A stretch of DNA of 64,000 nucleotides, from NCBI GenBank assembly GCA_965215605.1, contig OZ244070.1, positions 2,336,001-2,400,000 on the forward strand, in the 5' to 3' direction. The stretch is from an uncultured Candidatus Binatia bacterium (GTDB taxonomy: Bacteria > Desulfobacterota > Binatia > UBA9968 > JAJDTQ01). The notes under the pieces are model-generated. The model did no database searches. It worked only from the letters and a program-made list of their open reading frames with translations, and was not told where the DNA came from. Every line of letters begins with the position of its first letter. The first letter of the stretch is position 1. Position numbers and translations under genes: made by a program. Shown here in pieces: positions 11,584 to 29,447 of the stretch.

Positions 11584-13110
11584 ATGCTTGCAAGGATTTA
11601 CGGCGCGTCGCTTCACGGCATCGACGCGCTCAAGGTGGCGGTGGAAGTCGACATCGCGTCGGGACTGCCGAAGCTGGTCATGGTGGGGCTCCCGGAGGGT
11701 GCCGTGCGCGAGAGCAAGGTGCGCGTGCGCGCGGCGTTGAGGAACTGCGGTTACCCGTTCCCGCCTCGGCGGATTACCGTCAACCTCGCCCCCGCGGACG
11801 TCAAGAAGGAGGGATCGGGCTACGACCTGCCCATGGCCATGGGCATCGTGGCAGCTCAAGGCGCCGTTGAGCCCGCGCGCCTCGCCGACTACCTGCTGGT
11901 GGGCGAGTTGTCCCTGGACGGCGCCATCAAGCCCGTGCGGGGCGCGCTGCCCATCGCGGCGGCCGCGCGGCGCCAGGGCCTCAAGGGCCTGATCCTGCCC
12001 CGCGCCAACAGCGCCGAAGCGGCGGCGGTGCAGGACATCGAGGTCTTCGGGGTGGAGAGCCTCGCGGAGGTCGTGGAGTTCCTGAACGGAGAGCGGGAGA
12101 TCGCGCCCACGCGGGTGGACCTTGCCCGCCTGTTCCGCCGGCACGCCGTCCACGACGCCGACTTCAGCGACGTCCGCGGACAGTCTCATGTCAAGCGGGC
12201 GCTGGAAGTGGCCGCCGCCGGCGGTCACAACGTCCTCTTGATGGGGCCCCCCGGCTCCGGGAAGACCATGCTGGCCAAGAGGCTGCCCACCATCTTGCCG
12301 GATCTGACCCTGGCCGAAGCCCTGGAGACCACCAAGATCCACAGCGTCACCGGCGTCCTGGGCGACAGCGCGCTGGTGGCGGTCCGGCCGTTCCGGGCGC
12401 CGCATCATACCGTCTCGGATGCCGGGATGGTGGGCGGCGGCACGGTGCCCCGGCCCGGGGAGGTGTCGCTGGCCCACAACGGTGTGCTCTTTCTCGACGA
12501 GGCGCCGGAGTTCCGCCGCAACGTCCTCGAGGTCCTGCGTCAACCCCTGGAGGACGGCCGCATCACGGTGGTGCGGGCCGTCGGCTCCGTCGACTATCCG
12601 GCCGCGTTCATGCTGGTGGCGGCCATGAATCCCTGTCCCTGCGGATTCTTCTCGGACCCGCTGAAGGAGTGCCGCTGCACCCCCGGGCAGATCACCCGCT
12701 ACCGCTCCAGGATCTCCGGGCCGCTGCTCGACCGCATCGACATCCAGGTGGAGGTGCCGGCGGTGGCGTACGAGGCGCTGGCGTCACGGGCCCCGGGTGA
12801 GCCCTCCGGGGCCATCCGCGAGCGGGTCGACCGGGCGCGCGCGGTGCAGGAGGAACGCTTCGGGCAGACCGGGATACACGCCAACGCCCGAATGAGCGCG
12901 CGCGGCGTCCAACGCCACTGCCAGGTGGACCCGGCGGGCGAGCAGCTTCTGGAAACCGCCATCAGGAGGCTCGGACTGAGCGCCCGCGCCTACGTGCGGA
13001 TCCTCAAGGTCAGCCGCACCATCGCCGACCTCGAGGGCGCCGAAGAGATCCGGCCGCCGCACGTCGCCGAAGCCATCCAGTACCGCGGCATGGACCGGCC
13101 GCCGGTCTGA
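11584..13110 (+). CDS. comM: YifB/ComM family Mg-chelatase-like AAA+ ATPase
   Basis: ITVNLAPADVKKEGSGYDLP, GPPGSGKTMLA, RPFRAPHH, GEVSLAHNGVLFLDE, AAMNPCPCG. Confidence 0.95.
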   Translation: MLARIYGASLHGIDALKVAVEVDIASGLPKLVMVGLPEGAVRESKVRVRAALRNCGYPFPPRRITVNLAPADVKKEGSGYDLPMAMGIVAAQGAVEPARLADYLLVGELSLDGAIKPVRGALPIAAAARRQGLKGLILPRANSAEAAAVQDIEVFGVESLAEVVEFLNGEREIAPTRVDLARLFRRHAVHDADFSDVRGQSHVKRALEVAAAGGHNVLLMGPPGSGKTMLAKRLPTILPDLTLAEALETTKIHSVTGVLGDSALVAVRPFRAPHHTVSDAGMVGGGTVPRPGEVSLAHNGVLFLDEAPEFRRNVLEVLRQPLEDGRITVVRAVGSVDYPAAFMLVAAMNPCPCGFFSDPLKECRCTPGQITRYRSRISGPLLDRIDIQVEVPAVAYEALASRAPGEPSGAIRERVDRARAVQEERFGQTGIHANARMSARGVQRHCQVDPAGEQLLETAIRRLGLSARAYVRILKVSRTIADLEGAEEIRPPHVAEAIQYRGMDRPPV

Positions 13111-13111
13111 G

Positions 13112-13363
13112 TTTTGGGGCCGCGAACAGTGGGCGAAATACTATCAAGGGTGGGTCCGCGCATTCGAGGGCATCATGGCCAATCCGGGTCGTGGACGCGA
13201 CCGAAGCTTGTTCGCCGCGGGCATGCGCTCGGTCAACTGCGGAAGGCACGTTATCTTCTTCGCGCGGATCCAGGCGCTTGGTAACGACCCGGTGATCCTG
13301 CGGACCGTTCATCGACGCCGCCATATGCCGGCATGGGTCTACCTCGAGGATCTGGAAGGATGA
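13112..13363 (+). pseudogene. N-terminally truncated ParE/RelE-family toxin remnant
   Basis: In-frame FWGREQWAKYYQGWVRAFEGIMANPGRGRDRSLFAAGMRSVNCGRHVIFF...VILRTVH matches the ParE pattern. N-terminus and ParD partner are absent. Confidence 0.7.
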
Positions 13364-14463
13364 GTGGCGGCGAAGGATGCGATCTCCGACACGTGCCGCA
13401 CGCCATCCCGGTCCATGACCTGTAGAAGCTCTTCCGCCATCCTCCTGGCGATCATCGGCCCGCGGTACGGGAGGGCGCTGTGGACCTGCACCAGGGGGCA
13501 GCCGCTCTCCTTCATCATGGTGCAGGCGTCACCCCCGTCGTAGATGCCGCCGTTGCCCACCAGCGTGAGGCGGCCCTCCAGCCGGGCCGCGGCGCCGCGG
13601 ACCTGGTCCCGCGCCTTGGGGAAGAGCGGCGGGCCGCTGTAGCCGCCCTTGTCCGGATCCGGGTTGACCGCGGGATCGATGGTGGTGTTGCCTATGATGA
13701 CGGCGTCGATTGCGGGGTCGAGCAGTTCGCGGCACTTGGTCAACGCGATGTCCCGGAGAATCGGCGGCATGTCCGGGGCGAACTTGGGCCAGAGGGGTTT
13801 TCGCCGCGCCATGCCGGCGGACCGCGCCAGATCGTCGGCCTTCTTCACCAGGCTGGTCAGCAAGTTGTCCAGCCGGCTGCCTTCCTGCAACTCCCGCAGA
13901 TGCAGCGTGTTGGGAGAGCTGATGCATATTTCGAAGAAGTCCGCGTACGGATAGAGCTTCTCCAGGGAATAGGCATAGTCCTGGAAGGCGTCGTCGAGGG
14001 GCGTCCGCAGCGCCTTGCCCAGGCTGATCCCCAGGGGAACCGGCAGCCCGGGCTGGCGTTCAAGGGTCGAGGCCAAAGTGTCCGCGCCGCGGTTGTTGAA
14101 GCCGAGACGGTTCCACAGTGCCCGGTTCGGCACGTCCCGGAACAGCCGCGGGCGCGGGTTCCCCGGCTGGCCGTCGCGGGGCGTCACGGACCCCACCGTG
14201 AGGAAGCCGAAGCCGAGCGCCGCCAGCGCGGGCGCGGCGATGCCGTTCTTGTCGAACCCGGCGGCGAGGCCGATGGGATTTCGGAAACGCATTCCGCACA
14301 GGGTCTGCTCCAGGCGGGGCTCCGGGTCCGGGTCGCGTCCGGCCAGGAGCGCCTGCAGCCACGGCCGGGTGTTCGCCCGCCGCAGCAGGCCCAGGGCGCC
14401 GTTGTGCGCGGTCTCGGCGTCCAGGCGGAACAGCAGCGGTGCCAGAAGTCTCTGGTAGAGCAT
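13339..14463 (-). CDS. pyrD: Dihydroorotate dehydrogenase, class 2 (quinone-dependent), divergent
   Basis: DAETAH, FRNPIGLAAGFDKNG, QPGNPRPRLFR, NRLGFNN, ISSPNT, NTT, GGYSG. Confidence 0.93.
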   Translation of the reverse strand: MLYQRLLAPLLFRLDAETAHNGALGLLRRANTRPWLQALLAGRDPDPEPRLEQTLCGMRFRNPIGLAAGFDKNGIAAPALAALGFGFLTVGSVTPRDGQPGNPRPRLFRDVPNRALWNRLGFNNRGADTLASTLERQPGLPVPLGISLGKALRTPLDDAFQDYAYSLEKLYPYADFFEICISSPNTLHLRELQEGSRLDNLLTSLVKKADDLARSAGMARRKPLWPKFAPDMPPILRDIALTKCRELLDPAIDAVIIGNTTIDPAVNPDPDKGGYSGPPLFPKARDQVRGAAARLEGRLTLVGNGGIYDGGDACTMMKESGCPLVQVHSALPYRGPMIARRMAEELLQVMDRDGVRHVSEIASFAATHPSRSSR

Positions 14464-14482
14464 CGACGGAGAGCCGCGCGGT

Positions 14483-15418
14483 TCAGTCGCCTTCGAAGAT
14501 CCACTCCAGCAGCGACATTCGGATGAACATGCCGTTGCCCGCCTGCCGGAAGTACCAGGCCCTCGGGTCCGCGTCGACTTCCGGTGGAATCTCCGCCAGC
14601 CGCGGCAGCGGATGCATGAGCACGGCGTGGGGCTTCATGAGGTCGAGTTGCGCGGGCCCGATGACGAACCTCAAGTGCAGTCCTTCATCGACCGCTTCCG
14701 GCCCGAGCCGTTCCTTCTGGACCCGTGTCCAGTAGACCACGTCGCTCCGTGGCAGTGCGTCCTCCAGACGCGATTCCTCGCTGAAGGCAACGCCTTTCTC
14801 GCGGAGGTGCTCCTTGATGTCCAAGCCCATTCCGAGCGGATCCGGGGACACGAACAGGATGCGGACGCCTTCGAACTTCGCCAGCAGGTAGGCCAGGGAC
14901 CGCGCCGTCCGGCCGTTGGCCAGGTCCCCGCCGATGGTCACGGTCAGGCCGGCGATGGTGCCGAGGGCCTGTTGGATGGTGTAGAGGTCCAGTAATGCCT
15001 GGGTGGGATGTTGCCCGGCTCCGTCACCCGCGTTGATGATCGGCACCGTGCTGTACCGGGCGGCGCGCTCGGCGGCGCCGGTCTCGTAGTGCCGCAGCGC
15101 GATCGCGTCCGGGTAATATTCGCACAGGACCCGGATGGTGTCCTCGAGGCTTTCCCCCTTGATGGCCGACGAGAACTCGCGCGCGTTCTCGGTGGCCACC
15201 ACGCTCATTCCAAGGTGCTGACCGGCGGCGACGAAAGACATCCGGGTCCGGGTGGAGGGTTCGTAAAAGACGCTGAAGAGGGTCTTCCCCCGGTGGATCC
15301 GGGTCAGGGCGAGTTTCTCGGAGGGGATGGCTATCTGCCGGCGGAACTCGTCCGCCCGCCGGAACAGCCTGTCCAGGATCGAACGGTCGAACTGCTGGGA
15401 ATACAGGACGTGTCGCAT
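14483..15418 (-). CDS. pyrB: Aspartate carbamoyltransferase catalytic subunit
   Basis: FYEPSTRTRMSF, KGESLEDT, INAGDGAGQHPTQALLD, TRVQKER, MHPLPR. Confidence 0.97.
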   Translation of the reverse strand: MRHVLYSQQFDRSILDRLFRRADEFRRQIAIPSEKLALTRIHRGKTLFSVFYEPSTRTRMSFVAAGQHLGMSVVATENAREFSSAIKGESLEDTIRVLCEYYPDAIALRHYETGAAERAARYSTVPIINAGDGAGQHPTQALLDLYTIQQALGTIAGLTVTIGGDLANGRTARSLAYLLAKFEGVRILFVSPDPLGMGLDIKEHLREKGVAFSEESRLEDALPRSDVVYWTRVQKERLGPEAVDEGLHLRFVIGPAQLDLMKPHAVLMHPLPRLAEIPPEVDADPRAWYFRQAGNGMFIRMSLLEWIFEGD

Positions 15419-15507
15419 TGCCGTGCTTGCCTGACGGTCGAGACGCGGGGACCCGGCCCGGCGGTGAAGCGATTCGCGCCGGCGGGTCCGGGGATGAGTC
15501 GAAGCGA

Positions 15508-15542
15508 ACTATAGGTTCTTGCGGGACTCACCGCAAGAACCT
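15508..15542 (-). promoter_or_regulatory. Putative pyrB promoter embedded in a 12-bp perfect inverted repeat
   Basis: TTGCGG-17 nt-TATAGT on the minus strand; inverted repeat AGGTTCTTGCGG (15513-15524) / CCGCAAGAACCT (15531-15542). Confidence 0.5.
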
Positions 15543-15633
15543 GACGCCCGGAGGGACCTGTCACCGCAGAGCCGGCGCGGGGTGGGCGCGGATGGCGCCA
15601 CGGCCGCGGAAAGCGCGGGACTACCGGTACGGG

Positions 15634-15861
15634 TTACCCCGCTTCATCAAGCGCCTGTTGGGGCAGCAGGGTTTGGGAGCCGACGACGACGGGTTCAAGG
15701 CCCGCGTTCGGGCCGAACTCGATCTTGCAACCGGCGAGGTCGCCGGCCAACTGGACCTTGCCGCTGTTGACAAGGTGGATAACGACGGCCTTCAGTTCGT
15801 CAGGAGTACTTGCATACTCGCCTACGGCGTCGATGACATCGAGCAGCGTGAGTGACTTCAT
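15634..15861 (-). CDS. Small hypothetical protein (75 aa)
   Basis: ATG with GAGGA SD; MKSLTLLDVIDAVGEYASTPDELKAVVIHLVNSGKVQLAGDLAG reads as a real protein, unlike the GC shadow ORFs. Confidence 0.65.
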   Translation of the reverse strand: MKSLTLLDVIDAVGEYASTPDELKAVVIHLVNSGKVQLAGDLAGCKIEFGPNAGLEPVVVGSQTLLPQQALDEAG

Positions 15862-16078
15862 CGTTGGTTCCTCATTCGACATTTTCTTGATGTCCTGAAG
15901 ACGCAAACGCCGTGCCATGCGCTCCGCCACGCCAAACCGTTGAAATAACGTGATTCCAGGGATCTTCCGGATACGCCGGTCGACGGGATCGTCGATCAAT
16001 GACGTTCTCGTCGACATTTTGGTGTCGTCCGGCAAAGGCGGGCAACCAGCGACGTCGTATTCGGAAGCGCGCGGATGC

Positions 16079-16120
16079 AAAAAACCCCTCGGTGGCCGGT
16101 TCCGGCTCGATCCCGAGGGG
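16079..16120 (-). terminator. Intrinsic terminator after etfA
   Basis: CCCCTCGG...CCGAGGGG stem followed by T6 on the minus strand. Confidence 0.7.
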
Positions 16121-16188
16121 GATTGGCTGATGAGTCAGCAGAACAGCGCGTATTTACTACAGATCGGGCCTCGGTGTCAACAGGTTCT

Positions 16189-17151
16189 TTATTTGCGGGC
16201 CTTGATCTCTTCGATGAGCTGGGGGACGACCTTGAAGACGTCGCCCACGATGCCGAGGTCGCACATCTGGAAGATGGGGGCATCGGCATCCTTGTTGACC
16301 GCCACGATCAGCTTGGAGTCCTTCATGCCGGCCAGGTGCTGCACGGCGCCGGAGATGCCACAGGCGATGTAGAGTTCGGGCTTGACGGTCTTGCCGGTTT
16401 GGCCGATCTGCAGGGAGTAGGGCACCCAGCCGGAATCCACCACGGCCCGGGTGGCGCCCACGGCGCCGCCCAGCAGGTCCGCCAACTCGCGCAGCATGTC
16501 GAAGTTCTCGGCTCCGGCCAGGCCGCGGCCTCCCGAGACGATGACGTTGGCGCCGTCCAACTGCGGGCCCTCGGCCCTGGCGGCGACCCGTTCCTTGACC
16601 CTTACCTTGCAGAGCTCGGCGCCGCCCGCGGCCGCGACTTCCTCCACCACCGGGGTCTTGGGGTTGTGGGCGGGCTCGAAGGCCTTGGGCCTCACCAGCA
16701 GGAGCTTGACGTCGTCGTGCACCAGCGTGGCGGTGTTCCAGTAGCTGGCTCCCAGGGCGGGGATCCTGGCTTCGATGGTTCCGTCCGTCAAGGTGAAGTC
16801 GGCCACGTCCGTGATGGCGCCGCAGTCGAGGCTGGCGCTGATGGCCGCGGCCACGTCGCGGCCGCCGTAGCTCGACGCGAACAGCACCGCCGCCGGCTTG
16901 TGTTGGCGAATGAGGGCTTCCACCACCGCCGCCGCGGGCAACGTCAGGTATTCATGAAAGACCGGGTCGGCCGACCGGTAGACCTTGCCTGCGCCGTGCT
17001 CGCCCAGCAACTCCACGGCGCCGTCGGGGGCCGGTCCGAGCAGGATCACCTCGGCGGCTCCCACCGCCGAGGCCTTGGTCACCATCTCCAGCGTCGTGGA
17101 GGTGACGGCGCCATCCACGACCTCGCCATAGACCCAAATGATATCGGACAT
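16189..17151 (-). CDS. etfA: Electron transfer flavoprotein alpha subunit
   Basis: [52 protein letters not shown]. Confidence 0.96.
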
Positions 17152-17931
17152 CTAAATGACCTTGGCCTCGGCCAGGAAATCGGCGATCCTCGTGCCCCCG
17201 TCGCCGTCGTCTTCCACCACCTCCCCGGCTGCGCGTTGCGGCGGCCTGCCAATCTCCAGGACCTTCTCCCGGGCTCCCGGCTCGCCCACCTCATCCGGTG
17301 TGAGGCCGAGGTCCTCGACGGAGTACTCCAGGATCTCTTTCCGCTTGGCCGACATGATGCCCTTGAGCTGCGGGTAGCGCGGCTCGTTTATGCCGCTGGT
17401 GACGGTCACCAGCGCCGGCAGCTCGGCCTCCACCACGTCGTAGCCGGTCTCGCTCTGGCGCTTGATGGACAGGGTGGAGCCGTCCACGGTCATCTCGTTG
17501 GCGAAGGTGACCGGCGGGACTCCCAGCAGCCGCGCGATCTGGCCCGGCACGATGCCGGAGTAGCTGTCGCTGCTCTCGGTGCCGCAGATGATGAGATCGA
17601 AAGGCTTCTTGCGGATGGCCGCGGCCAGGGCCTTGGCCGTCGCCAGCGCGTCCGACCCCGCCAGCGCGTCGTCGAAGATGTGCACCGCGGAGGTGGCCCC
17701 CATGGCCAGCGCGGTCCGTATGCCGATGGTGATCTCGTTGAATCCCATGGTCACCAGCGTGACCGTGCCGCCCACCTGCTCCATCAGCCGCAACGCCTCT
17801 TCCACCGCGCTGGCCGCGGCCGGATCCAACTCGTGCGCCACGCCCTTGCGGATCATCCGCCTGGTGGCGGGGTCGATCTCGATGGTGACGGTGCTGGCAG
17901 GGATGATCTTGCCACAGACCACGATATCCAA
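17152..17931 (-). CDS. etfB: Electron transfer flavoprotein beta subunit
   Basis: IVVCGK, AVEEALRL, ALAMGA, DLIICGTESSD, NEPRYP; TTG start with GGAGG SD. Confidence 0.95.
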   Translation of the reverse strand: MDIVVCGKIIPASTVTIEIDPATRRMIRKGVAHELDPAAASAVEEALRLMEQVGGTVTLVTMGFNEITIGIRTALAMGATSAVHIFDDALAGSDALATAKALAAAIRKKPFDLIICGTESSDSYSGIVPGQIARLLGVPPVTFANEMTVDGSTLSIKRQSETGYDVVEAELPALVTVTSGINEPRYPQLKGIMSAKRKEILEYSVEDLGLTPDEVGEPGAREKVLEIGRPPQRAAGEVVEDDGDGGTRIADFLAEAKVI

Positions 17932-18026
17932 GGGTGCGAACCTCCGGTAAGGGTAGTGGGAGCCGGTGATGCCCGGCTATGGCGAGCCCGAAAGGGAGGG
18001 TGGAAGGGGGAGGGTTTCCGGATCGG

Positions 18027-18221
18027 CTACTCCAGCCACTCGGATACCTTCCCCTCCATCACCATGTCGAGGACTTCCCGGCAGTCCTGGAGAGCCTGGT
18101 CCACGATCTTCTCGTCCTTGATGTTGGGGACCGCCCGGTTGACGGCCCCGTGGACCGCCGCGATGCAGGCCTTGAGGTGCTCGTCGAGCTCCGCCGAATG
18201 AGGTGCCTGTGCCATTTCCAT
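18027..18221 (-). CDS. Small hypothetical helical protein (62-64 aa)
   Basis: Starts 7 nt after the PaaA-like stop, same strand, host-like codon usage. Confidence 0.6.
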   Translation of the reverse strand: MEMAQAPHSAELDEHLKACIAAVHGAVNRAVPNIKDEKIVDQALQDCREVLDMVMEGKVSEWLE

Positions 18222-18228
18222 TTCCGTC

Positions 18229-18945
18229 TCAGGTGTAGAGCCGGCCCTCGTTGGGGTCGGGGATTTCGAGGCCCATGTCCGTGATCAGGGCATTGATCTC
18301 CGCGGTGTACTCTGCCCGCTGCTGGCGGTTGGTGCGCCTCTTGAGGCCCCAATAACGGTACCGCTCGGAGCGCCTGGAATCCGACTTGCCGAACATGTCC
18401 AGGCCCTTCACGTACCAGTAGTTCACCGCGTTCTGGATGCGCTCCCTCGACTCGTCACCGCCTTCGGCCATCTCGCGGGTCATGTTGGTGCCGAAGGAGA
18501 TGTGCGCGACTTCTTCCTGCTCCATGGTGGGAAGGAGCTCGGCAAGCGGCAGGTAGCTGCAGTCCTCGAACTCCTCGAGCTGGAAGCGTCCGACCCGGTC
18601 GATGAGAAAGCCGAAGACCGCGAAATCTTCCCAGGTGGTGATCTTGCCGCGGAACGCCTCCACGTAGCGTTTCTGATTGGGCCAGCTCAGGACGTAGGAC
18701 ACATCCTCGCCGATGTCTGCGGCCAGCTTGGCCATCTTGCGGTAGTGGTCCACCTCTTCCGCCGCGGTGCGCGCCACCACGAGCTGGTAGAGCTTCGTCG
18801 GGGCGTTGGGGAGCATGTCGTCGATGTAGAGATGCGGCCCGCCGATCTCGCAGTCGCACTGGATCGCAAGCACCCGCTTCAACAGATCCTGGTACTCCGG
18901 ATCCATCTTCTCGAAGTCTTTGAGCTCGATCTTGTCGGTGAACAT
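18229..18945 (-). CDS. PaaA/BoxB-like ferritin-fold di-iron aryl-CoA epoxidase subunit
   Basis: Ligand pattern E(CEIGG)...EEVDH...D(LIDRVG)...EEVAH; C-terminal YW..GLDMFG...WGLKRRTN as in PaaA. Confidence 0.8.
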   Translation of the reverse strand: MFTDKIELKDFEKMDPEYQDLLKRVLAIQCDCEIGGPHLYIDDMLPNAPTKLYQLVVARTAAEEVDHYRKMAKLAADIGEDVSYVLSWPNQKRYVEAFRGKITTWEDFAVFGFLIDRVGRFQLEEFEDCSYLPLAELLPTMEQEEVAHISFGTNMTREMAEGGDESRERIQNAVNYWYVKGLDMFGKSDSRRSERYRYWGLKRRTNRQQRAEYTAEINALITDMGLEIPDPNEGRLYT

Positions 18946-19084
18946 GGCGCCTCTCCTCTGTAACTTTTCAACTAAAATCGGGTTAGCAGAAGGCTCGATT
19001 GAAGGCAAGCGAAAGCGGCACGGCCTTTACTCGGCCCTGGCCACGCCCTAAACTGACGGGCGCATACGGCAGCAGGGGGGAAGC

Positions 19085-19738
19085 GTGATGTCGGAAGACG
19101 TCGTTAGCAGCGTGACGGTGCCGAAGAACTCCGGGTGGGCCTCCACGATGAGGAAGGGCCATTGCATCCGGGTGGCGGGGAGGTCGGTGGTGGACTTCGT
19201 CGCCTTCAACCTGCATGACCTGACCGAGCGTTTCGATCAGGCCCGGACCAAGACCAACCAGGCGCGGATTTTTATCAGCGCCGGCGACCAGCTCTTGTCC
19301 AAGCTCAACAATCCGCTGCTGACCATCGTGGCGGACACGTTCCATGAAGGACGGCACGACTTGCAGAAGGGGATGTGCAGCCGCAGGCGGTTCGAGCTGG
19401 TGGCCGCCGGTCTGGCCCAGCGGAACTTCATCGAGGGGGTCGATCCCAATCCCAGGAGGCCGGAGGACATTCCCACCCACGGCTGCTACGAGAACCTCTC
19501 CGAGGCCGTGCGCCCGTGGGACATTGCCCCGGTGGACATCCCGAGCCCGTTCAACATCTTTCAGACCATGCGCATCGACCCGGATACCGGCGCCATGTTC
19601 GACACCTTCGTGCGGCCCAGGGAAGACGCCCATGTGGATTTTCGCGCGGAGATGGACTGTCTCGTGGCCCTCAGCGCGTGTCCGGAATCCGGACGAGGGC
19701 AGGCGATCCGGGTGGAAATGTTCGAACCGGAGGCCTGA
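19085..19738 (+). CDS. DUF1989 (urea carboxylase-associated family) protein
   Basis: VDFVAFNLHDLTERFDQART, HDL...CS, HGCYENL, PSPFNIF, FRAEMDCLVALSACP. Confidence 0.85.
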   Translation: MMSEDVVSSVTVPKNSGWASTMRKGHCIRVAGRSVVDFVAFNLHDLTERFDQARTKTNQARIFISAGDQLLSKLNNPLLTIVADTFHEGRHDLQKGMCSRRRFELVAAGLAQRNFIEGVDPNPRRPEDIPTHGCYENLSEAVRPWDIAPVDIPSPFNIFQTMRIDPDTGAMFDTFVRPREDAHVDFRAEMDCLVALSACPESGRGQAIRVEMFEPEA

Positions 19739-19743
19739 CCACC

Positions 19744-20940
19744 ATGGATGTCCGGGAAGCCTTTCGCATTGCCGACGAGCACGTTGACGATCCCGAGCTG
19801 GATGCGCTGTTCACCGAGCTGCTGCGGGTCCCATCGGAGCACACGGAGCGCATGGAGTCCGATCCGGCTGTGACGGGCTTCGTCGCGGACGTGGTGGCGC
19901 CGCGGCTCCAAACGCTTACCGGGGTGACGCCACGGACCGATGGTATGGGCAACCTGCTGTGGCGGCTCGGTCCGGCCGAGGCGGATCCGGCGGAGGGGCT
20001 GCTCTTCATGGGTTACGCCATGACCTTCCCGGCGGGCTCGATGCCGGAGCCGTTCTCGGGAAGGGTGGTGCCCGGGGAGCCCTACGGGCTCGAGGGGCCG
20101 TGCGTGTGGGGCCGGGGCGGCTGCGAGCAGAAGGCGGCGCTGGCGGCCATGCTGGCGGCCGCCGCCGCGGTGCGGCGGTCGGGCCGGGAGCTGACGCGTC
20201 CACTGTCGCTGGCGGTGAGCACGGCCGGGGAGACCGGACGCCATGATGCGGCCCGGTACATGCTGGAAGAGGATGGTCTCACGGCCCGCTACGGCATCGT
20301 CGGGCTGGGCACCACCAACCGGGTCTGTCTGGGTAACAAGGGCCGGATCGACGTGGAAGTCGTGGTGGGCGGCCAGTCCTGCCACAGCAGCACACCATGG
20401 GCCGGGGTCAACGCGGTGGAGGGGGCACGCGCGGTGCTGGAGCGCCTGGACGGTTTGGTGGACGGCATCGCCCACCCGTCGCTGGGGGATGCGAGCCTGG
20501 TCGCCACCCATATCGAGAGCGGCCCCGACATCCTGCACACCATACAGGACCATTGTCGGCTGACGCTCGACCGGCGTCTCATGCCGGGCGAGGATCCGGC
20601 GGAGGCCCTGGCGGCCATCACCCGAGCCCTGGCGGATCTGGAGCCCTGGCAGGTGGCGGTCACCCAGGGCAATTTCATGTATCCCGCCGAGGTGTCGGAG
20701 GACAGCGAGGTGGCCGTGGCCCTGGCGGCGGCGCGCGAGATGGCGGGGGAGACGGGGCCGCCGTTATGGTTTCCGGCGGCGCTGGATGCGGGCTACCTGA
20801 ACGAGAGCGGCATCGAGACCGTCATGTTCGGACCGGGAGACCTGGCCTTCGCCCACACCGACGCCGAGGTGGTGGTGCTGGAGCAGGTGCGGCGAGCGGC
20901 CAGGGTCTATGCCGCGGCGGCGCTGCAGATGCTCGCATGA
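19744..20940 (+). CDS. M20/ArgE-DapE family metallohydrolase with atypical metal ligands
   Basis: VWGRGGCEQK, GETG, GNKGR, GQSCHSSTPWAGVNA, DRRLMPGE, FGPGD..AH. Confidence 0.8.
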   Translation: MDVREAFRIADEHVDDPELDALFTELLRVPSEHTERMESDPAVTGFVADVVAPRLQTLTGVTPRTDGMGNLLWRLGPAEADPAEGLLFMGYAMTFPAGSMPEPFSGRVVPGEPYGLEGPCVWGRGGCEQKAALAAMLAAAAAVRRSGRELTRPLSLAVSTAGETGRHDAARYMLEEDGLTARYGIVGLGTTNRVCLGNKGRIDVEVVVGGQSCHSSTPWAGVNAVEGARAVLERLDGLVDGIAHPSLGDASLVATHIESGPDILHTIQDHCRLTLDRRLMPGEDPAEALAAITRALADLEPWQVAVTQGNFMYPAEVSEDSEVAVALAAAREMAGETGPPLWFPAALDAGYLNESGIETVMFGPGDLAFAHTDAEVVVLEQVRRAARVYAAAALQMLA

Positions 20941-20958
20941 CTCGGGGGCACCGCCAAA

Positions 20959-20983
20959 CGTCATTCCCGCGAAAGCGGGAATC
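20959..20983 (+). repeat. Palindromic REP-like element CGTCATTCCCGCGAAAGCGGGAATC (copy 1)
   Basis: Identical core at 46038; intergenic hairpin ATTCCCGC-GAAA-GCGGGAAT. Confidence 0.8.
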
Positions 20984-20994
20984 TTGCGGGAATG

Positions 20995-21041
20995 AAAAAG
21001 GGACCCTCCCGATGTTCGGCGACATCGAAAGGGTCCCTTTC
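20995..21041. terminator. Probable bidirectional terminator between convergent genes
   Basis: AAAGGGACCC..CGATGT / ACATCG..GGGTCCCTTT stem flanked by A and T runs. Confidence 0.7.
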
Positions 21042-21072
21042 GCCATTGTGGCGAAGATGCGGGCCGTCGGGC

Positions 21073-22095
21073 CTACTTCTTCATCCACCCCTTGTTGTTA
21101 TACCAGGCCAGGGCCTTGTCGTAGAACTCCTGGAACATGATCTGCTCCATCGGCGGGATCTTGGTATCCTTTGCGATGGACTTGGTCCAGAACGCCGACT
21201 CGATGTACGCTTCGACGCCCGCCGCGGTTGCCTGACAGCGATCGGGGATGGACTTTGCCTCCAAGATCTCGATTTCGTACATCTTCTTGGCGATGTGCGG
21301 CTTGTTGCGCATCACGTTCTGGTAGACGTTCAGCACTTCTTCGCCGTTCTTGGGGTCGTTGACGAAGGCGCATCCGCGAATGAGGGTGCCCATCAGGGCA
21401 ACGGCCTTGTCGGGATTGTCCTTGATGAAGTTCTTGTTCATGGCGAGTTGCAGGAACGCGTATTCCTTGACGAACTGTTCCGCGGCGCCGAGAACGGTCA
21501 AGCCCGCGTCGCGTGCCGCCAGCATCTTGCCGAAGGTGAGGGAGCCCACGTCGATCTTGCCGGCCTTGACGCCGGCCAACCGCGCGGACGATCCACCGAC
21601 CTTGATCAGGCGCACGTCCTTCTCCGGGATGCCCGCGTTCTGCAGCAGCTTGAGGGAGACGTAGACGTTGCCGGACGTGGGAGAGCTGATGCCCACCTTT
21701 ACCGGCCGCGGCAGGTCCTTGTAGGACTTGACGTGCTTGCCGCCCACGAGCCAGTAGGGCAGGGTGTTCAACTCGGTGCCGACGATGCGGATGTTGCTGC
21801 CCGGCCGAATGGCCAGCGCGATGTTGTCATCCGACCCGAAGAAGGGGAGCTGACCCCGTTCCAGCGCGAGGACCGCGGCGTTCTCACCGCCCGATACCGA
21901 GTAGACCCTGGCGTCGTAGCCGATGTCCTTGAAAAAACCCTTGTGGATGGCCACCTGCTCCACCAGCGACGTGGTGGAGTTGGTCTGCGCCACCGGGATG
22001 CGGAGCTTTTCCTGCGCGAGTGCCTGACCGCCAAGCAGCAGTCCCGCGCCCACCAAGGCTATGACAATTCCTTTTGCGATCCTCTTGGCCCTCAT
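21073..22095 (-). CDS. ABC transporter substrate-binding protein, NitT/TauT/SsuA-like (copy 3)
   Basis: Signal peptide MRAKRIAKGIVIALVGAGLLLGGQALA; KGFFKDIG, KVGGSSARLAGVKAGKID; GGAGG SD. Confidence 0.9.
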   Translation of the reverse strand: MRAKRIAKGIVIALVGAGLLLGGQALAQEKLRIPVAQTNSTTSLVEQVAIHKGFFKDIGYDARVYSVSGGENAAVLALERGQLPFFGSDDNIALAIRPGSNIRIVGTELNTLPYWLVGGKHVKSYKDLPRPVKVGISSPTSGNVYVSLKLLQNAGIPEKDVRLIKVGGSSARLAGVKAGKIDVGSLTFGKMLAARDAGLTVLGAAEQFVKEYAFLQLAMNKNFIKDNPDKAVALMGTLIRGCAFVNDPKNGEEVLNVYQNVMRNKPHIAKKMYEIEILEAKSIPDRCQATAAGVEAYIESAFWTKSIAKDTKIPPMEQIMFQEFYDKALAWYNNKGWMKK

Positions 22096-22144
22096 GTGTT
22101 TCCTCCTTCTGTTGGTTGATGGTTGACACGGTGAGCATGAAGAC

Positions 22145-22182
22145 GGACCCTTCCGATGTCCTGTCGGGCATCGGAGAGGTCC
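22145..22182. repeat. Intergenic hairpin related to the hairpin at 21001-21036
   Basis: GGACCCTTCCGATGTC...GGGCATCGGAGAGGTCC resembles the stem downstream of copy 3. Confidence 0.55.
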
Positions 22183-22214
22183 CTCCTTTGCAACACCGTT
22201 TCCTGTGACCTTCC

Positions 22215-23234
22215 TTACTTCTTCATCCACCCTTTGTTGTTGAACCAAGCCAGGGCCCGGTCATAGAACTCGGGGAACATGATGTCTTTGGTTGGCGGAA
22301 TCTTGGTGTCCGCCGCGATGGACTTGCTCCAGACGGCCGACTCGATGAATGCCTTGATACCAGCTTCCGTGGCCTGGCACCGGTCGGGGATGGAACCTTG
22401 GGCGACCTCGATCTCGTACATCTCCTTGGCGATGTCCGGCGGGTTGCGCATGACCTTCTCGAGGACGTGCAGGACCTCTTCACGGTTCGCGGGGTCGTTG
22501 ACGAACGCGCACCCGCGGATCAGGGTGCCGAACATGGCCTCGGCCTTCTTCGGCTGGTCCTTGATGTAGTTCTTGTTCATGGCGACCTGAAGGAACGCGT
22601 ATTCCTTGACGAACTGGTTCGCCGCGCCAAGGATCGACAGGTTTGCCTTCTTGGCCCGCAGCATCATGCCGAAAGTCAGCGAGCCCACGTCGATTTTGCC
22701 GCCCTTGACGCCCGCCAACCGTGCCGACGATCCGCCTACCTTGATCAGGCGGGTGTCCTTCGTCGGGATGCCGGCCGCCTCGAGCAGCTTCAGGGACACG
22801 TAGACGTTACCCGAGGTGGGGGAGCTGATCCCGACCTTCACCGGCCGCGGCAGGTCTTTGTAGGACTTGACGTGCTTCCCGGCCACGAGCCAGTACGGCA
22901 GCACGTTCATCTCGCTGCCGATGACGCGGATGTTGCTGCCCGGGCGAATGGCCAGAGGGATGTTGTCGTCCGAGCCGAAGAAGGGAAGTTGGCCCCGTTC
23001 CAGGGCGAGGACGGCGGCGTTCTCGCCACCCGATACCGAGTAGACCCTGGCGTCGTAACCGATGTCCTTGAAGAAGCCCTTGTAGATGGCCACCTGCTCG
23101 GTCAGCGCGGTGGTCGTGCTGGTCATCGCAACCGGGATTCGGAGGTTTTCCTGTGCGAGCACCTGTCCGCCCCATAACAGGCTGGCTCCCAAAAAGGCCG
23201 CGGCGATTCCTTTCGCAATGCGATTGTGTTTCAT
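22215..23234 (-). CDS. ABC transporter substrate-binding protein, NitT/TauT-like (copy 2)
   Basis: Close paralogue of the flanking genes, with a signal peptide. Confidence 0.9.
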   Translation of the reverse strand: MKHNRIAKGIAAAFLGASLLWGGQVLAQENLRIPVAMTSTTTALTEQVAIYKGFFKDIGYDARVYSVSGGENAAVLALERGQLPFFGSDDNIPLAIRPGSNIRVIGSEMNVLPYWLVAGKHVKSYKDLPRPVKVGISSPTSGNVYVSLKLLEAAGIPTKDTRLIKVGGSSARLAGVKGGKIDVGSLTFGMMLRAKKANLSILGAANQFVKEYAFLQVAMNKNYIKDQPKKAEAMFGTLIRGCAFVNDPANREEVLHVLEKVMRNPPDIAKEMYEIEVAQGSIPDRCQATEAGIKAFIESAVWSKSIAADTKIPPTKDIMFPEFYDRALAWFNNKGWMKK

Positions 23235-23250
23235 GCGTAGTCCTCCTTCG

Positions 23251-24273
23251 CTACTTTTTCATCCAGCCCTTGCTGTCGTGCCAGGCAAGGGCCTTGGCGT
23301 AGAACTCGGGGAACAGGATCTGGTCGATGGGCGGAACCTTGGTATCCGCCGCGATGGACTTGGTCCAGAAGGCCGAATCGAGGAAGGCCTTGATGCCCGC
23401 CTCGGTGGCTTGGCATCGGTCCGGGATGTGCTTGCTCTGGGTCACCTCGATGTCGTACATCTCCTTGGCCAGGTTCGGCTTGTTGCGCATGACCTTCGTG
23501 AGGACATGCATGACCTCTTCCTTGTTCTTCGGGTCGTTGATGTACGCACACCCGCGGATGAGGGTGCCGAACATGGCCGTGGCCTTGTCCGGATTGTCCT
23601 TGACGTAGTTCCTGTTCATGCCGAGTTGCGTGAAGGCGTATTCCTTCACGAACTGGTTGGCGGCGCCGAGGATCGTCAGGTTCGCTTCCCTGGCGCGCAG
23701 CATGTTGCCGAAGGTCAGCGAGCCCACGTCGATCTTGCCCGCCTTGACGCCCGCCAGACGCGCCGACGACCCGCCGACCTTCACCAGGCGCACATCCTTT
23801 CTGTCGATGCCGGCGGTCTCGAGCAGCTTGAGGGACACGTAGACATTGCCCGAGGTGGGCGAACTGATGCCCACTTTCACGGGCCGGGGCAGGTCCTTGT
23901 ACGACTTGACGTGTTTCCCGCCGACCAGCCAGTAGGGCAGCGTGTTCATCAAGGTGCCGACGACCCGGATGTTGCTGCCGGGACGAATGGCCAGGGGAAC
24001 GACGTCGTCCGAGCTGAAGAAGGGAAGTTGACCCCGTTCCAGGGCCAGCACCGCGGCGTTCTCGCCGCCCGACACCGAGTAGACCACGGCGTCGTAGCCG
24101 ATCTCCTTGAACCAGCCCTTGTAGATGCCCACCTGCTGCACCAGCGCGGTGCTCGAGTTGGGGGATGCCACCGGGATACGGAGCTTCTCCAGGGCCTGCG
24201 CGGAGCCGGCGAACCACAGGCATGCCCCCAGGAAGGCTGCGGCGATTCCTCTTGCGACAAGTCTACGTCTCAT
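23251..24273 (-). CDS. ABC transporter substrate-binding protein, NitT/TauT-like (copy 1)
   Basis: Start MRRRLVARGIAAAFLG with GGAGG SD; close paralogue. Confidence 0.9.
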   Translation of the reverse strand: MRRRLVARGIAAAFLGACLWFAGSAQALEKLRIPVASPNSSTALVQQVGIYKGWFKEIGYDAVVYSVSGGENAAVLALERGQLPFFSSDDVVPLAIRPGSNIRVVGTLMNTLPYWLVGGKHVKSYKDLPRPVKVGISSPTSGNVYVSLKLLETAGIDRKDVRLVKVGGSSARLAGVKAGKIDVGSLTFGNMLRAREANLTILGAANQFVKEYAFTQLGMNRNYVKDNPDKATAMFGTLIRGCAYINDPKNKEEVMHVLTKVMRNKPNLAKEMYDIEVTQSKHIPDRCQATEAGIKAFLDSAFWTKSIAADTKVPPIDQILFPEFYAKALAWHDSKGWMKK

Positions 24274-24362
24274 TGGCTTCCCTCCTTGTTTGTGAGATTC
24301 AGCCCGGAACTTCGCATCATTGCCGTTGCATGGGGAATGGCGCCCGCCCGGCGAGCTGCCGA

Positions 24363-25154
24363 CTACTCCTCCATGGCCTTGCGGGCCTCGTCCGCGAGCA
24401 ACTCCCAGATGTCGTGCTTGATCTGCAGGAACTCGGGTTCTTCCTTGATTCGCAGGGTGCGGGGGGTGGGAAAGGGAACCTTGATCTCCTTCATGATCGT
24501 ACCCGGCCTGAAGCTGAAGCAGAAAACGACGTCGGAAAGAAACACGGCTTCCTCGATGTCGTGGGTCACGAAGACCACTATCTTGCCCGAGTTCTTCCAA
24601 TCGATCATCCGCTGCAGCTCTTCCTGCATGAGCAGCCGCGTCTGGGCGTCCAGGGAGGCGAAGGGTTCGTCCATGAGCAGGATTTCCGGGTCCACCGCCA
24701 GTGCGCGGGCAAGGTTCACCCGCTGCTGCATGCCGCCGGAAAGCTCGTGAGGATAGTGGCTCTCGAAGCCCCGCAAGCCGACGATCTGCGTGTATTTGTC
24801 ACAGATCTCGCGCTTTTCGGTGGCGGACATGCTGCGGTCGTTCTCGATGCCGAACTGGATGTTGTCGGTAACGTTCCGCCAAGGCAGCAGCAGGGCCTGC
24901 TGGAACACCACGGCCTTGTTGGGCGTCGGACCGGTCACTTCCTCGCCGTCCAGCAGGATACGGCCCTTGGTAGGGGGCAGCAGCCCGTGGATCATGTGCA
25001 GCAGCGTCGTCTTGCCGCAGCCGCTGGGTCCCACGAACGAATAGAACGTCCCCGGACGGAGATCCATGTCGACGCCGCCCACGGCATGGACCGTCTCCCC
25101 GGTGGGTTTCATGAAGGTCTTGTGGATTTGCTCTACCTGAATCGATGACGACAC
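24363..25154 (-). CDS. ABC transporter ATP-binding protein (TauB/SsuB-like)
   Basis: GPSGCGKTT, LSGGMQQR, LLMDEPFASLDAQTR, FVTHDIEEA. Confidence 0.95.
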   Translation of the reverse strand: MSSSIQVEQIHKTFMKPTGETVHAVGGVDMDLRPGTFYSFVGPSGCGKTTLLHMIHGLLPPTKGRILLDGEEVTGPTPNKAVVFQQALLLPWRNVTDNIQFGIENDRSMSATEKREICDKYTQIVGLRGFESHYPHELSGGMQQRVNLARALAVDPEILLMDEPFASLDAQTRLLMQEELQRMIDWKNSGKIVVFVTHDIEEAVFLSDVVFCFSFRPGTIMKEIKVPFPTPRTLRIKEEPEFLQIKHDIWELLADEARKAMEE

Positions 25155-25157
25155 GGA

Positions 25158-25943
25158 CTACTCCTGTAATTGGGAATCACGCCAAGGCGCCATGCGGCGC
25201 TCGATCATGAGAATCGCCTGGTTGAGCACCACGCCGGTGCCGGCGAGCATGGCCGCGCACGACATCATGAGCGGCATGTTGAAGGTATCCAGTCCCTTGA
25301 ACAGTTGATAGCCGAGTCCCGCATAGGCGCCGAAATACTCTCCCACGACGACTCCCACGATCCCGCGGGAGATGCCGAGGCGCAGCCCCGTAACGATATA
25401 GGGGAGTGAACCCGGAATGAGGATCTTGTAAAGGACCTGATTCTTGGGAATGCAGAACGAGCTGGCGAGGGTCTGGAACTCCTTGCCGACGCTCAGAACC
25501 CCGGTGTAGGTGTTCAGGACGATGGGCACCACCGCGGTGATGAGGACGATGACGATCTTGGCCGTGAGGTCCACGCCGAACCAGATGATGATGAGCGGCG
25601 CCAGCGCCACGGACGGCGTGGCGTAGACCGCGCTCAGCCAGGGATCGAAGAATTCGCGGAATACCCGGCTGATCCCGAAGATCATCCCGAGGGCGATGCC
25701 CGCGAACGCGGCTACGCCGAATCCCCAGAAGAACTCGATGCCGCTGATGTATAGATCGTCAAGGATCTCGCCGCTGGCGAAAAGGCCGTAGGTGTGGGTG
25801 ACGACCCGCCACGGGCCCACGAAGAACAACTCGCTGTTGACCTGCCAGTCGGCGAACGACCAGAACACCGCCACGATGGCGATGCCGAAAATCGCGTTCA
25901 GCCATTTACGCTGCTGCTGATAGATACTTGCCAAGGCTTCCAT
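25158..25943 (-). CDS. ABC transporter permease (TauC/SsuC-like)
   Basis: Hydrophobic; PSVALAPLIIIWFG, PGSLPYIVTGLRLG, EYFGAYAGLGY. Confidence 0.93.
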   Translation of the reverse strand: MEALASIYQQQRKWLNAIFGIAIVAVFWSFADWQVNSELFFVGPWRVVTHTYGLFASGEILDDLYISGIEFFWGFGVAAFAGIALGMIFGISRVFREFFDPWLSAVYATPSVALAPLIIIWFGVDLTAKIVIVLITAVVPIVLNTYTGVLSVGKEFQTLASSFCIPKNQVLYKILIPGSLPYIVTGLRLGISRGIVGVVVGEYFGAYAGLGYQLFKGLDTFNMPLMMSCAAMLAGTGVVLNQAILMIERRMAPWRDSQLQE

Positions 25944-25957
25944 GAGGTTCTCTCGAC

Positions 25958-26788
25958 TTAGACCAGTGTCTTTCTGTAAGGCGTAGCCCAGCGCTCGACG
26001 CCCTTGAGGATCTCGTTGCCCGCGATCCCCATGATGGTCAGCAGCGAGATGCCTACCATCATCTCGGCCACGTGGAACGTCTGCGTCGCGTGGTCGATCA
26101 TGTAGCCGATGCCGGCCTCGGCCCCGAACAGCTCTGCCACCATGATGGTCACCACCGACCGGGAGTAGCCCAGCCTCAGCCCCGCGATCAGGAACGGCAG
26201 CGAACCCGGTATGATGATCTTGGTCAGCATGGCCCAGAACGAGATGTTGAAGGCCCGTCCCAGCATGCGGAACTCGCCTTGAACGTTCTTGATGCCGGCC
26301 TGTGTGTTGATGATTACGGGAAACACCGAGGCCAGGGTGATGACGCCGACCTTGGAGGCGATGCCGAGGCCCAGCCAGATGATGAACAGCGGCGCCGCCA
26401 CCGAACGCGGTGTGGCGTAAAGGCCCACCAGGATGGGGGAGAACATCTCGTCCAGGGTCTTGCTGAAAGCCACCGCCGCGCCGATGACGACTCCCAGGAT
26501 CATGGCGAGGCCGAAGCCGTAGATCAGCTCGGTGCCGCTGTAGTTGATGTTCTCCCAGAACCGCGGCTCATAGACCAGCACCGTGAATTCGACCGCTACT
26601 GCCACCGGGCCGGTGAAGAAGTCGGGATCATCGAAGATGTAGTCGATGAACTCCCACGTCAACAGGGCCAGGATCACGGAGAAGAAGAAGTTGATGCCGA
26701 TGCGGTGGCGGTTGTAGACACCCTTCACGGACGTGACGAACGAAGGCTCGGGCGTGTCTTCGAGCGGTACAGGTTGCGTTTTACTCAT
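25958..26788 (-). CDS. ABC transporter permease (TauC/SsuC-like)
   Basis: APLFIIWLGLG, PGSLPFLIAGLRLG, AELFGAEAGIGY. Confidence 0.93.
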   Translation of the reverse strand: MSKTQPVPLEDTPEPSFVTSVKGVYNRHRIGINFFFSVILALLTWEFIDYIFDDPDFFTGPVAVAVEFTVLVYEPRFWENINYSGTELIYGFGLAMILGVVIGAAVAFSKTLDEMFSPILVGLYATPRSVAAPLFIIWLGLGIASKVGVITLASVFPVIINTQAGIKNVQGEFRMLGRAFNISFWAMLTKIIIPGSLPFLIAGLRLGYSRSVVTIMVAELFGAEAGIGYMIDHATQTFHVAEMMVGISLLTIMGIAGNEILKGVERWATPYRKTLV

Positions 26789-26835
26789 GGATTTCCGATG
26801 GGCGTAGAAATGGGGCGGATGCAATTAAACCCTGC

Positions 26836-26864
26836 CTCATACGAGTATTGGCAGACCTTGTCAA
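26836..26864 (-). promoter_or_regulatory. Putative sigma70 promoter of the ABC operon
   Basis: TTGACA-17 nt-TATGAG on the minus strand. Confidence 0.5.
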
Positions 26865-26884
26865 GCGGTTTTGACTGTTTGCGG

Positions 26885-27424
26885 TCAGATCCTCACGACC
26901 GCATCGACTTTGTCGATTTCCGTGAGCCGGACGCGCACGTCCCCGCCCTTGGACATCGCGACCTGCTTGCCGACGAAACGGGCCTCGATGGGAAGCTCCC
27001 GTCCGCCGCGGTCTACCAGGACCGCGAGAAAGATGGCCCTGGGCCGCCCCAGTGCCATGAGGTGGTCGACGGCGGCGCGGACGGTGCGTCCGGTATGCAA
27101 CACGTCATCGAACAGGATCACGGTCTTGTCGGTCACGTCGAAGGGTATGTGGGTGGCGTCGATGCGTCCCTTGGGCAGCAACGTGTTCAGGTCGTCGCGA
27201 TAGAGCGTGGCGTCGAGCTCGCCCACGAGAACCGGCAGGCCGTGCTTTTCCTTCAGGACCGCGGCGACACGCCGGGCCAAGGTAGGTCCGCGGGTCCGTA
27301 TACCGACGAAGGCCAGCGCGCCGGCGCACTCCTCGGCGATCCGCTTGGCAAAGCCCGCCAGAACTCTCTTGATCTGTGCTCCGCCGAGCACGGGTGTTTC
27401 CTTGGTTGCCTTAGATTTCTGCAT
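26885..27424 (-). CDS. pyrR: PyrR-family uracil phosphoribosyltransferase / attenuation regulator
   Basis: GIRTRG, LDATLYRDDL, ILFDDVLHTGRTVRAA, GRP, LVDRGGRELPI. Confidence 0.9.
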   Translation of the reverse strand: MQKSKATKETPVLGGAQIKRVLAGFAKRIAEECAGALAFVGIRTRGPTLARRVAAVLKEKHGLPVLVGELDATLYRDDLNTLLPKGRIDATHIPFDVTDKTVILFDDVLHTGRTVRAAVDHLMALGRPRAIFLAVLVDRGGRELPIEARFVGKQVAMSKGGDVRVRLTEIDKVDAVVRI

Positions 27425-29441: not shown

Positions 29442-29447
29442 CTGCCC

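Follow-up and report, generated by a model that had tools for sequence, protein, structure and literature searches.

Why would a bacterium carry the gene for a di-iron protein of the PaaA/BoxB type in one operon with the genes for an electron-transferring flavoprotein (ETF)? The question is raised by a stretch of 64,000 nucleotides, here called the window, from the genome of an uncultured Candidatus Binatia bacterium of soil or sponge. On its minus strand a gene for a 238-aa protein of the family PF05138 (18229..18945) is followed by a small open reading frame (ORF; 18027..18221, or 18027..18215 in its 62-aa form), by etfB (17152..17931) and by etfA (16189..17151), and the series is closed by an intrinsic terminator (~16079..16120). 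A first-pass annotation of the window had described an ORF of ~62 aa coupled to the PaaA-like gene, co-oriented etfB and etfA and a single terminator, and all of these elements were verified. To our knowledge, the characterised enzymes of the PaaA/BoxB type and other soluble multicomponent di-iron oxygenases depend on a dedicated flavin/iron-sulfur reductase that passes on electrons from NAD(P)H. The reading that we favour, tentatively and at a little less than an even chance, is that the locus encodes a two-subunit PaaA-family oxygenase of acyl-CoA or aryl-CoA that is reduced by the ETF.

The di-iron protein and the absent Paa and Box partners

The gene for the 238-aa protein, which is the proposed catalytic subunit, starts with ATG and has GGAGAGG 5' of it. 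The product matches PF05138 (PaaA_PaaC) with 86.2 bits, the gathering cut-off being 28.5. The full E/ExxH/D/ExxH di-iron set that had been noted before is present as E33, E64xxH67, D116 and E145xxH148. Each of these residues falls in the same alignment column as a ligand of E. coli PaaA in the solved structure 3PVR (phmmer), and all six are invariant in 18 of 18 relatives of 64-92% identity. An AlphaFold2 model of the protein, made from a 34-row alignment, has a mean predicted local distance difference test (pLDDT) of 96.4. Foldseek matches the model to PaaA chains (E 1e-10, TM-score normalised on the query 0.85-0.89) and to SSO1313 (4MUD; TM-score normalised on the target 0.90), followed by PaaC and BoxB. 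For residue comparisons the PaaA numbering was anchored on Glu72 and Asp126, both named in PMC4498308, the chain index being the numbering of that paper plus 2. The same paper describes Phe108 of PaaA as a residue that orients the substrate and Lys103 as a 'door' residue. Their positions are occupied by F98 and R93 in the window protein, and both are invariant.

The resemblance to PaaA of the E. coli PaaABCE system (3PVR, 3PW1, 4IIT) thus extends over the four-helix-bundle di-iron fold, the E/ExxH/D/ExxH ligands and the equivalents of F98/R93, and PaaA too is partnered by a small accessory protein without a cofactor. The differences are also clear. The two proteins share 24% identity, and the window protein is ~60 residues shorter and falls below the equivalog cut-off, with 88.1 bits against a required 280 for the PaaA equivalog TIGR02156. 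BoxB (Azoarcus, 3PM5) is likewise a di-iron enzyme of aryl-CoA, and relatives of the window protein adjoin regulators of the BzdR/BoxR type; however, BoxB has ~470 aa, and the window protein scores 35.6 bits with TIGR03225, far below the cut-off of 499.1. The length of 238 aa compares with profile lengths of 289 (PaaA) and 471 (BoxB). Judged by its sequence, the 238-aa protein is not an orthologue of PaaA or of BoxB. The best sequence match among solved structures is SSO1313 of Sulfolobus solfataricus (4MUD, 235 aa; 2.5e-18), which has the same compact size and fold, though the identity is only ~24%. That structure was deposited under the title 'ring oxydation complex/phenylacetic acid degradation related protein', and neither a function nor a partner or electron donor is named in the entry. 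The family to which the window protein belongs is large. One search returned 2151 proteins at E <=0.001, and among 1.84 billion cluster representatives (50%-identity clusters) 632 match at E <=0.001 and 276 at E <=1e-10. Many proteins of this wider family have 235-265 aa and 27-48% identity, and retain E33, E64, H67, E145 and H148.

Could the locus nevertheless encode an ordinary Paa or Box epoxidase that stands near etfBA by chance? Membership in PF05138 and the public annotations, which name relatives 'PaaA' or 'PaaI', would be in keeping with this. The profile scores, the short chain and the loss of the lysine bridge of PaaA (discussed below) are not, and neither is the rest of the genome, which has 4.06 Mb on 8 contigs and is 97% complete. 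The earlier statement that PaaB, PaaC, PaaE and BoxA are lacking from the window holds, and for three of them it can be extended to the whole genome: there are no matches to PaaB and none to PaaE, and for BoxA there are only two weak ferredoxin-domain matches (27-31 bits, cut-off 459). A PaaC-type partner is also missing from the genome, and the gene, in contrast to paaA, lies in an ETF operon. The first-pass annotation had allowed that cognate paaBCE or boxA genes might lie elsewhere. The sole other PF05138 protein of the genome, encoded 327 kb away, is BoxB-like (371 aa, 223 bits, cut-off 499) and has a full ligand set of its own. An ordinary Paa or Box enzyme is therefore very improbable and close to refuted.

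The gene for the 371-aa protein is divergent from one for a soluble GlpC-like protein with CCG and 4Fe-4S domains (308.7 bits, cut-off 278; G000:C1:2025187-2027602, which is L040:7388-9803). At another locus (L032) a 55%-identical homologue of the 371-aa protein is encoded directly upstream of a paralogue of the 238-aa protein.

A predicted second subunit

The small ORF begins 13 nt (62-aa start) or 7 nt (64-aa start) past the stop codon of the PaaA-like gene, and the start conserved among relatives is the 62-aa one. It encodes an acidic helical protein that has no match in Pfam, NCBIfam or Protein Atlas, and none among PDB sequences at E <0.2. The PaaB profile (PF06243) does not match it either, so the ORF does not qualify as a PaaB. 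Across 16 aligned relatives the protein is 35-85% identical, has 62-63 aa and opens with M-x-(Q/K)-A-P; D11, A20, A41, D44, G55, V57, S58 and W60 are invariant. It possesses only one near-invariant Cys, and therefore no metal cluster is expected. The open-access literature, a scope that leaves out most subscription journals, yielded no description of this 62-aa protein or of an ETF-linked enzyme of the PaaA type.

When the complex of the small protein with the di-iron protein was predicted, the interface score ipSAE was 0.89 in three runs and 0.01 for the best control. The pLDDT of the partners is at least 86 and the contacts agree to at least 98%. The ipSAE mark is reached by 116 of 157 solved complexes and by 2 of 215 mismatched pairs, counts that hold only approximately with custom alignments. 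The predicted interface takes in residues 37-87 of the larger partner and thus the outer face of the helix on which E64 and H67 are located. The prediction supports binding of the small protein to the di-iron protein as a second subunit. It had been suggested before that the enzyme has a single subunit with the small protein as an accessory factor. An association of the two proteins is in line with the prediction, but a single-subunit enzyme is unlikely, the 62-aa protein being predicted as a bound second subunit.

The predicted position of the small protein differs from that of its counterpart in the Paa system. The accessory protein of PaaA bridges two heterodimers, whereas the 62-aa hairpin, which is unrelated to it, is predicted to lie on the ligand helix instead. 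In PaaA, the surface proposed for docking of the reductase is the outer face of the helix that corresponds to the E64/H67 helix. It is possible that the ETF is the physiological reductase of a di-iron oxygenase of the bacterial multicomponent monooxygenase (BMM)/PaaA type and that the acidic 62-aa hairpin serves as its docking adaptor, although on balance we would lean against this combined proposal.

Linkage to the ETF and the outlet for its electrons

The linkage was followed in 118 loci, namely 37 from genomes, 80 from metagenomes and the window. The metagenome scan used a narrow alignment and reached only relatives of at least 66% identity; distant members were found by genome search. The small ORF is the next gene in 102 of the 114 loci that have at least 300 nt downstream, and etfB comes next in 81 of the 103 that have at least 700 nt. 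At the remaining loci a BzdR/BoxR-type regulator (8 loci) or another neighbour (14 loci) follows. With 81 of 103 assessable related loci showing it, the arrangement is far beyond chance, and the possibility, raised in the first-pass annotation, that etfBA might be unlinked in relatives was not borne out. The upstream flanks vary while the block stays. A divergent gene for nicotinate phosphoribosyltransferase (NAPRTase) is found in 51 of 96 assessable loci and DUF1989 plus M20 genes in 22, these being the window's clade, and the block persists through this flank turnover across ~30% protein divergence. A link to nicotinate metabolism was considered, but the neighbouring gene scores as an ordinary nicotinate phosphoribosyltransferase (592.7 bits, cut-off 503) and is replaced by DUF1989 and M20 in the window's clade.

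The class was sampled evenly with 121 genomes (the tallies for ETF alpha and for the EtfD-like protein discussed below include the unpublished genome G238, on which no conclusion depends). In this sample close orthologues of at least 65% identity occur only in the window's order, in family f1 (7 of 7, the window among them), family f77 (6 of 6) and family f78 (2 of 2). Beyond the order only family f82 gives matches (4 of 14, ~36% identity). Both genes were found in 13 genomes of the order, and in all 13 the gene for ETF alpha is carried by the same contig, ~2.4 kb downstream; two fragmented genomes of the order gave no ETF match. Five ETF loci of sister orders encode proteins with 39-42% (EtfA) and 31-36% (EtfB) identity to the window's ETF. 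An IclR regulator precedes the ETF in four of the five, and a PaaA-like gene is present in none. Related loci carry the labels Candidatus Binatia and 'Deltaproteobacteria' metagenome-assembled genomes.

In the window the two ETF genes are adjacent, with the ETF domains PF01012 in etfB (8.6e-40) and PF00766 (9.1e-38) together with PF01012 in etfA (Pfam). The gene etfB, for the small subunit, has a TTG start with a GGAGG ribosome-binding site before it, and etfA, for the large subunit, starts 1 nt beyond the etfB stop codon. The terminator behind etfA, identified from sequence and fold, has an 8-bp GC stem with an inner hairpin (CCCCUCGG...CCGAGGGG) followed by UUUUUU, and folds with -23.4 kcal/mol. 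Its loop is 20 nt; a consensus scan for loops of <=8 nt listed only an unrelated site on the plus strand.

Between the small ORF and etfB there is a spacer of 95 nt (17932..18026, minus strand). Spacers of 80-139 nt occur in 82 of 86 loci, and three others have 13, 19 and 51 nt. The window's spacer contains a GC hairpin (CCGGC-loop-GCCGG, 17950-17985, minus strand) ~25 nt upstream of the etfB ribosome-binding site, without a T-run. The window's clade (L003-L021, L036, L037, L041) retains both the hairpin and the GGAGG site, and the fold of the spacer against shuffles has a z of -1.0. The hairpin could be a processing or stability element, or its conservation among close kin could be due to chance. 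A scan for sigma-70-like promoters found no sites in 15400-19300, a result that is not decisive since the promoter type of the host is not known. Contigs from four RNA libraries of three studies (labelled sponge metagenome or metagenome), mostly 90-99% alike, cover parts of all four genes within 16100-19050. One of 302 nt spans the junction of the PaaA-like gene and the small ORF (18116-18416) and one of 164 nt spans the etfB/etfA junction (17073-17228); none among the four libraries lies over the spacer at 17932-18026. These contigs come from relatives and not from this strain, and contigs cannot show a transcript, so that their support for co-transcription is weak. They hint that relatives are present, and perhaps active, in the habitats sampled for RNA.

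What kind of ETF is this? The 97% complete genome has a single ETF_alpha match, as do five of five further genomes, and it has nine acyl-CoA dehydrogenase matches above the cut-off and one below. Thus etfBA is the housekeeping ETF and not a dedicated reductase; being the sole ETF of the genome it must also serve the ~9 acyl-CoA dehydrogenases. Among solved chains EtfB is nearest to the bifurcating CarD 6FAH_B (1.1e-42) and 5OL2_B (8.6e-41), compared with 2.4e-29 for human ETF beta. Gly123 of A. fermentans EtfB is given as invariant in bifurcating (two-FAD) ETFs in PMC12630350, and this position is Ser123 in the window's EtfB. The loop reads GTESSDSYSGIVP, compared with GRQAIDGDTAQVG in four bifurcating chains and GKQAIDDDCNQTG in human ETF. 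The Ser123 loop is unlike that of either ETF class, though the overall sequence is closer to the bifurcating chains.

The electrons of an ETF need an acceptor. The Fer4 domain of ETF:quinone oxidoreductase (ETF-QO) turned up in 5 of the 121 sampled genomes, in none of 15 of the order and in none of the seven genomes of the window's genus (G000, G180, G216, G224, G232, G240, G248; the acyl-CoA dehydrogenase count is from G000 only), each of which has one ETF. An EtfD-like membrane Fe-S protein of 819 aa, which combines hydrophobic segments with a 4Fe-4S dicluster and two CCG domains, is present in 110 of the 121, including 8 of 8 genomes of f77 and f78, and its gene adjoins etfA in one sister genome; it is found in none of the seven genomes of the window's genus. 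Since both are missing there, the ETF of this genus has no recognised acceptor besides its operon neighbour. The absence of the EtfD-like protein is suggestive of its replacement by the di-iron pair in the window's genus. The idea that the pair replaces ETF-QO was rejected, because the Fer4 domain, with its few occurrences in the class (5/121), is not distributed in a way that complements the block.

The lack of an acceptor also leads to another explanation, in which the pair is an ETF:oxygen oxidoreductase that reduces O2 to water or H2O2 without an organic substrate, either as an outlet for electrons from acyl-CoA or as an O2 scavenger. There is a precedent in the butyryl-CoA oxygen oxidoreductase (BOOR) of Fusobacterium nucleatum, in which, according to PMC12288474 (see also PMC12630350), a flavin module of the acyl-CoA dehydrogenase/EtfA type feeds a di-iron centre that reduces O2. 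BOOR is, however, a flavodiiron protein with a metallo-beta-lactamase fold and a rubredoxin link, it carries out no oxygenation and it comes from an anaerobe. The explanation is also in keeping with the presence of paralogues in operons with O2-sensitive enzymes similar to benzoyl-CoA reductase and near cytochrome oxidase genes. Other evidence points the other way. The PaaA fold is retained together with F98 and R93 of the pocket, which would be needless in a pure oxidase, and the BzdR-type regulators and CoA-ester enzymes near relatives point to an organic substrate. In addition, f77 and f78 have the EtfD-like protein and the block together, and such a reaction would be wasteful of energy in an aerobe that possesses cytochrome oxidases. 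We consider an oxidase of this kind unlikely, and oxygenase chemistry would fit the retained pocket better.

Substrate, mechanism and what the locus would mean

Which compound would a two-subunit oxygenase act on? Indications come from family members outside ETF loci. In the tree (a quick maximum-likelihood tree of 117 sequences and 3 outgroups) the ETF neighbour has been lost in one nested clade of 10 that is well supported. Its members stand in aromatic or CoA contexts, with enoyl-CoA hydratases, BadF/BcrA and HGD-D proteins similar to benzoyl-CoA reductase, short-chain dehydrogenases, an acyl-CoA dehydrogenase, LigXa-like Rieske oxygenases and cytochrome oxidase genes. Two genomes that hold such cluster-borne paralogues, G004 and G005, have exactly one ETF alpha each, and the single ETF locus of each (L121 on C37 and L122 on C18, respectively) reads NAPRTase (divergent), PaaA-like gene, small ORF, etfB, etfA. 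As a copy is kept at the single ETF locus, the constant copy is the one linked to the ETF, and those in the clusters are duplicates. G005 is labelled a Verrucomicrobiia metagenome-assembled genome, yet its block is Binatia-like, and the label or the binning may merit a check.

A basal clade of eight loci (L050, L057, L069, L071, L076, L083, L098, L103) has a BzdR/BoxR-type regulator directly after the gene of the 238-aa family. The regulator has a helix-turn-helix and a shikimate-kinase-like domain and matches NF006015 (anaerobic benzoate catabolism transcriptional regulator) with 245.9 bits (cut-off 204). Five genes of more distant relatives, with 36-48% identity, were also inspected, and none adjoins an ETF. 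The 48%-identical one (L135, from another family of the phylum) has a divergent upstream BzdR-type regulator and a UbiD-family decarboxylase. Three of ~36% stand with an AMP-ligase and short-chain dehydrogenases, and one of the three with an enoyl-CoA hydratase; one 36% relative adjoins two MaoC-type hydratases. No reductase of the PaaE/BoxA type was seen near any paralogue or distant relative inspected, which shows that the family is generally without a dedicated reductase gene. These neighbour contexts point to CoA thioesters and to aryl-CoA sensing, and because CoA ligases, hydratases and BzdR-type regulators adjoin the genes of paralogues and distant relatives, a CoA-thioester substrate is likely.

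A different context is found on one metagenome contig (L045:1688-4659), where a homologue of the 238-aa protein without the small ORF is encoded between a SufB/D gene and a DUF59 (PaaD/SufT-like) gene.

A number of points weigh against the ETF as electron donor. We know of no ETF-dependent di-iron oxygenase, and none was found in the open-access literature. The ETF is the housekeeping one, so that co-transcription may reflect shared regulation only, and a promoter for etfBA within the 95-nt spacer is possible. Linkage to the ETF changes state just three times on the tree; therefore most of the 81 loci represent one inherited arrangement and are not independent support. The basal clade lacks both the small ORF and an adjacent ETF, as do the distant relatives. 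Families f77 and f78 carry the block as well as the EtfD-like protein, and no clean complementary pattern is seen. Finally, PaaA has a 'lysine bridge' formed by Lys68, Glu49, Glu72 and Asp126 (residue names from PMC4498308), which has been proposed for electron entry. This bridge is not kept in the window protein, where Lys68 is replaced by T60 and Glu49 by I41.

Several of these points also fit the absence of any partnership. The four genes would then be co-transcribed without being redox partners, and a CoA-thioester oxygenase would be served by another general donor encoded elsewhere, for instance a ferredoxin or an NAD(P)H reductase. The di-iron pair would stand in the ETF operon because both serve the catabolism of CoA esters or because the promoter is constitutive. 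A sole, housekeeping ETF, the essentially single origin of the linkage, the paralogues that operate away from the ETF in other clusters, and the 36-48% relatives and basal clade without an adjacent ETF all agree with this. The housekeeping NAPRTase gene is itself a stable neighbour (51/96), so that stable synteny need not mean shared function. On the other hand, no PaaE/BoxA-type reductase is encoded in the genome or near any relative examined, the block survives the turnover of its flanks, and genomes with extra copies still retain one at the ETF locus. A lack of partnership is rather unlikely in our estimation, though it is the likeliest of the competing explanations.

How would a two-subunit enzyme reduced by the ETF work? 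The 238-aa and 62-aa proteins would form a di-iron oxygenase of the PaaA/BoxB branch of the ferritin-like superfamily, which would bind a CoA thioester, acyl or aryl, and activate O2 at a carboxylate-bridged di-iron centre. The acyl-CoA dehydrogenases would reduce the ETF, the only one of the cell, and the co-transcribed ETF, in place of a reductase of the PaaE/BoxA type, would supply two electrons per turnover. The acidic small subunit, itself without a cofactor, would probably sit on the outer face of the E64/H67 helix, which corresponds to the proposed reductase-docking surface of PaaA, and may act there as an adaptor.

Other genes surround the block. Just past the terminator there is a conserved 75-aa ORF of no known family (MKSLTLLDVIDAVGEY...; 15634-15861, minus strand), with 50-88% identity in close relatives. 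Further downstream are pyrB (similar to aspartate carbamoyltransferase) and pyrD (similar to class 2 dihydroorotate dehydrogenase) at 13339-15418 on the minus strand. The former is absent or fragmentary in several close relatives (L004, L006, L007, L010, L011, L015). A functional link to pyrB/pyrD was rejected because of their position past the terminator and their absence or truncation in several relatives. On the other side, a cluster at 19085-30133 is syntenic in close relatives. Its plus strand encodes a DUF1989 protein (19085-19738) and an M20 hydrolase (~19738-20940). The minus strand encodes three tandem NMT1-like binding proteins (21073-24273), an ABC ATPase and two permeases, as well as a type-I phosphoribosyltransferase (26885-27424), a second M20 hydrolase (27411-28703) and a second DUF1989 protein (29501-30133). 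This cluster may serve to take up and break down a ureido or N-heterocyclic compound. Rfam gave no match in 13000-31000 of the window.

The catalytic fold and the family of the 238-aa protein are known; what is new is the 62-aa subunit and the genomic wiring, and possibly the electron donor. The catalytic protein is small, confidently folded in prediction and expected to be easy to express, so the question can be tested directly. If the favoured reading is true, the ETF would be a new class of donor for enzymes of the PaaA/BoxB type, and soluble di-iron oxygenases would have a new architecture for electron delivery. Electrons derived from acyl-CoA would be reused directly to activate O2 on another CoA thioester, and neither NAD(P)H nor an iron-sulfur reductase would be involved. 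It would also give a function to a well-populated and uncharacterised family (2151 proteins, 276 clusters), and it would help to explain where the electrons of the ETF go in Binatia-like bacteria that have neither ETF-QO nor EtfD.

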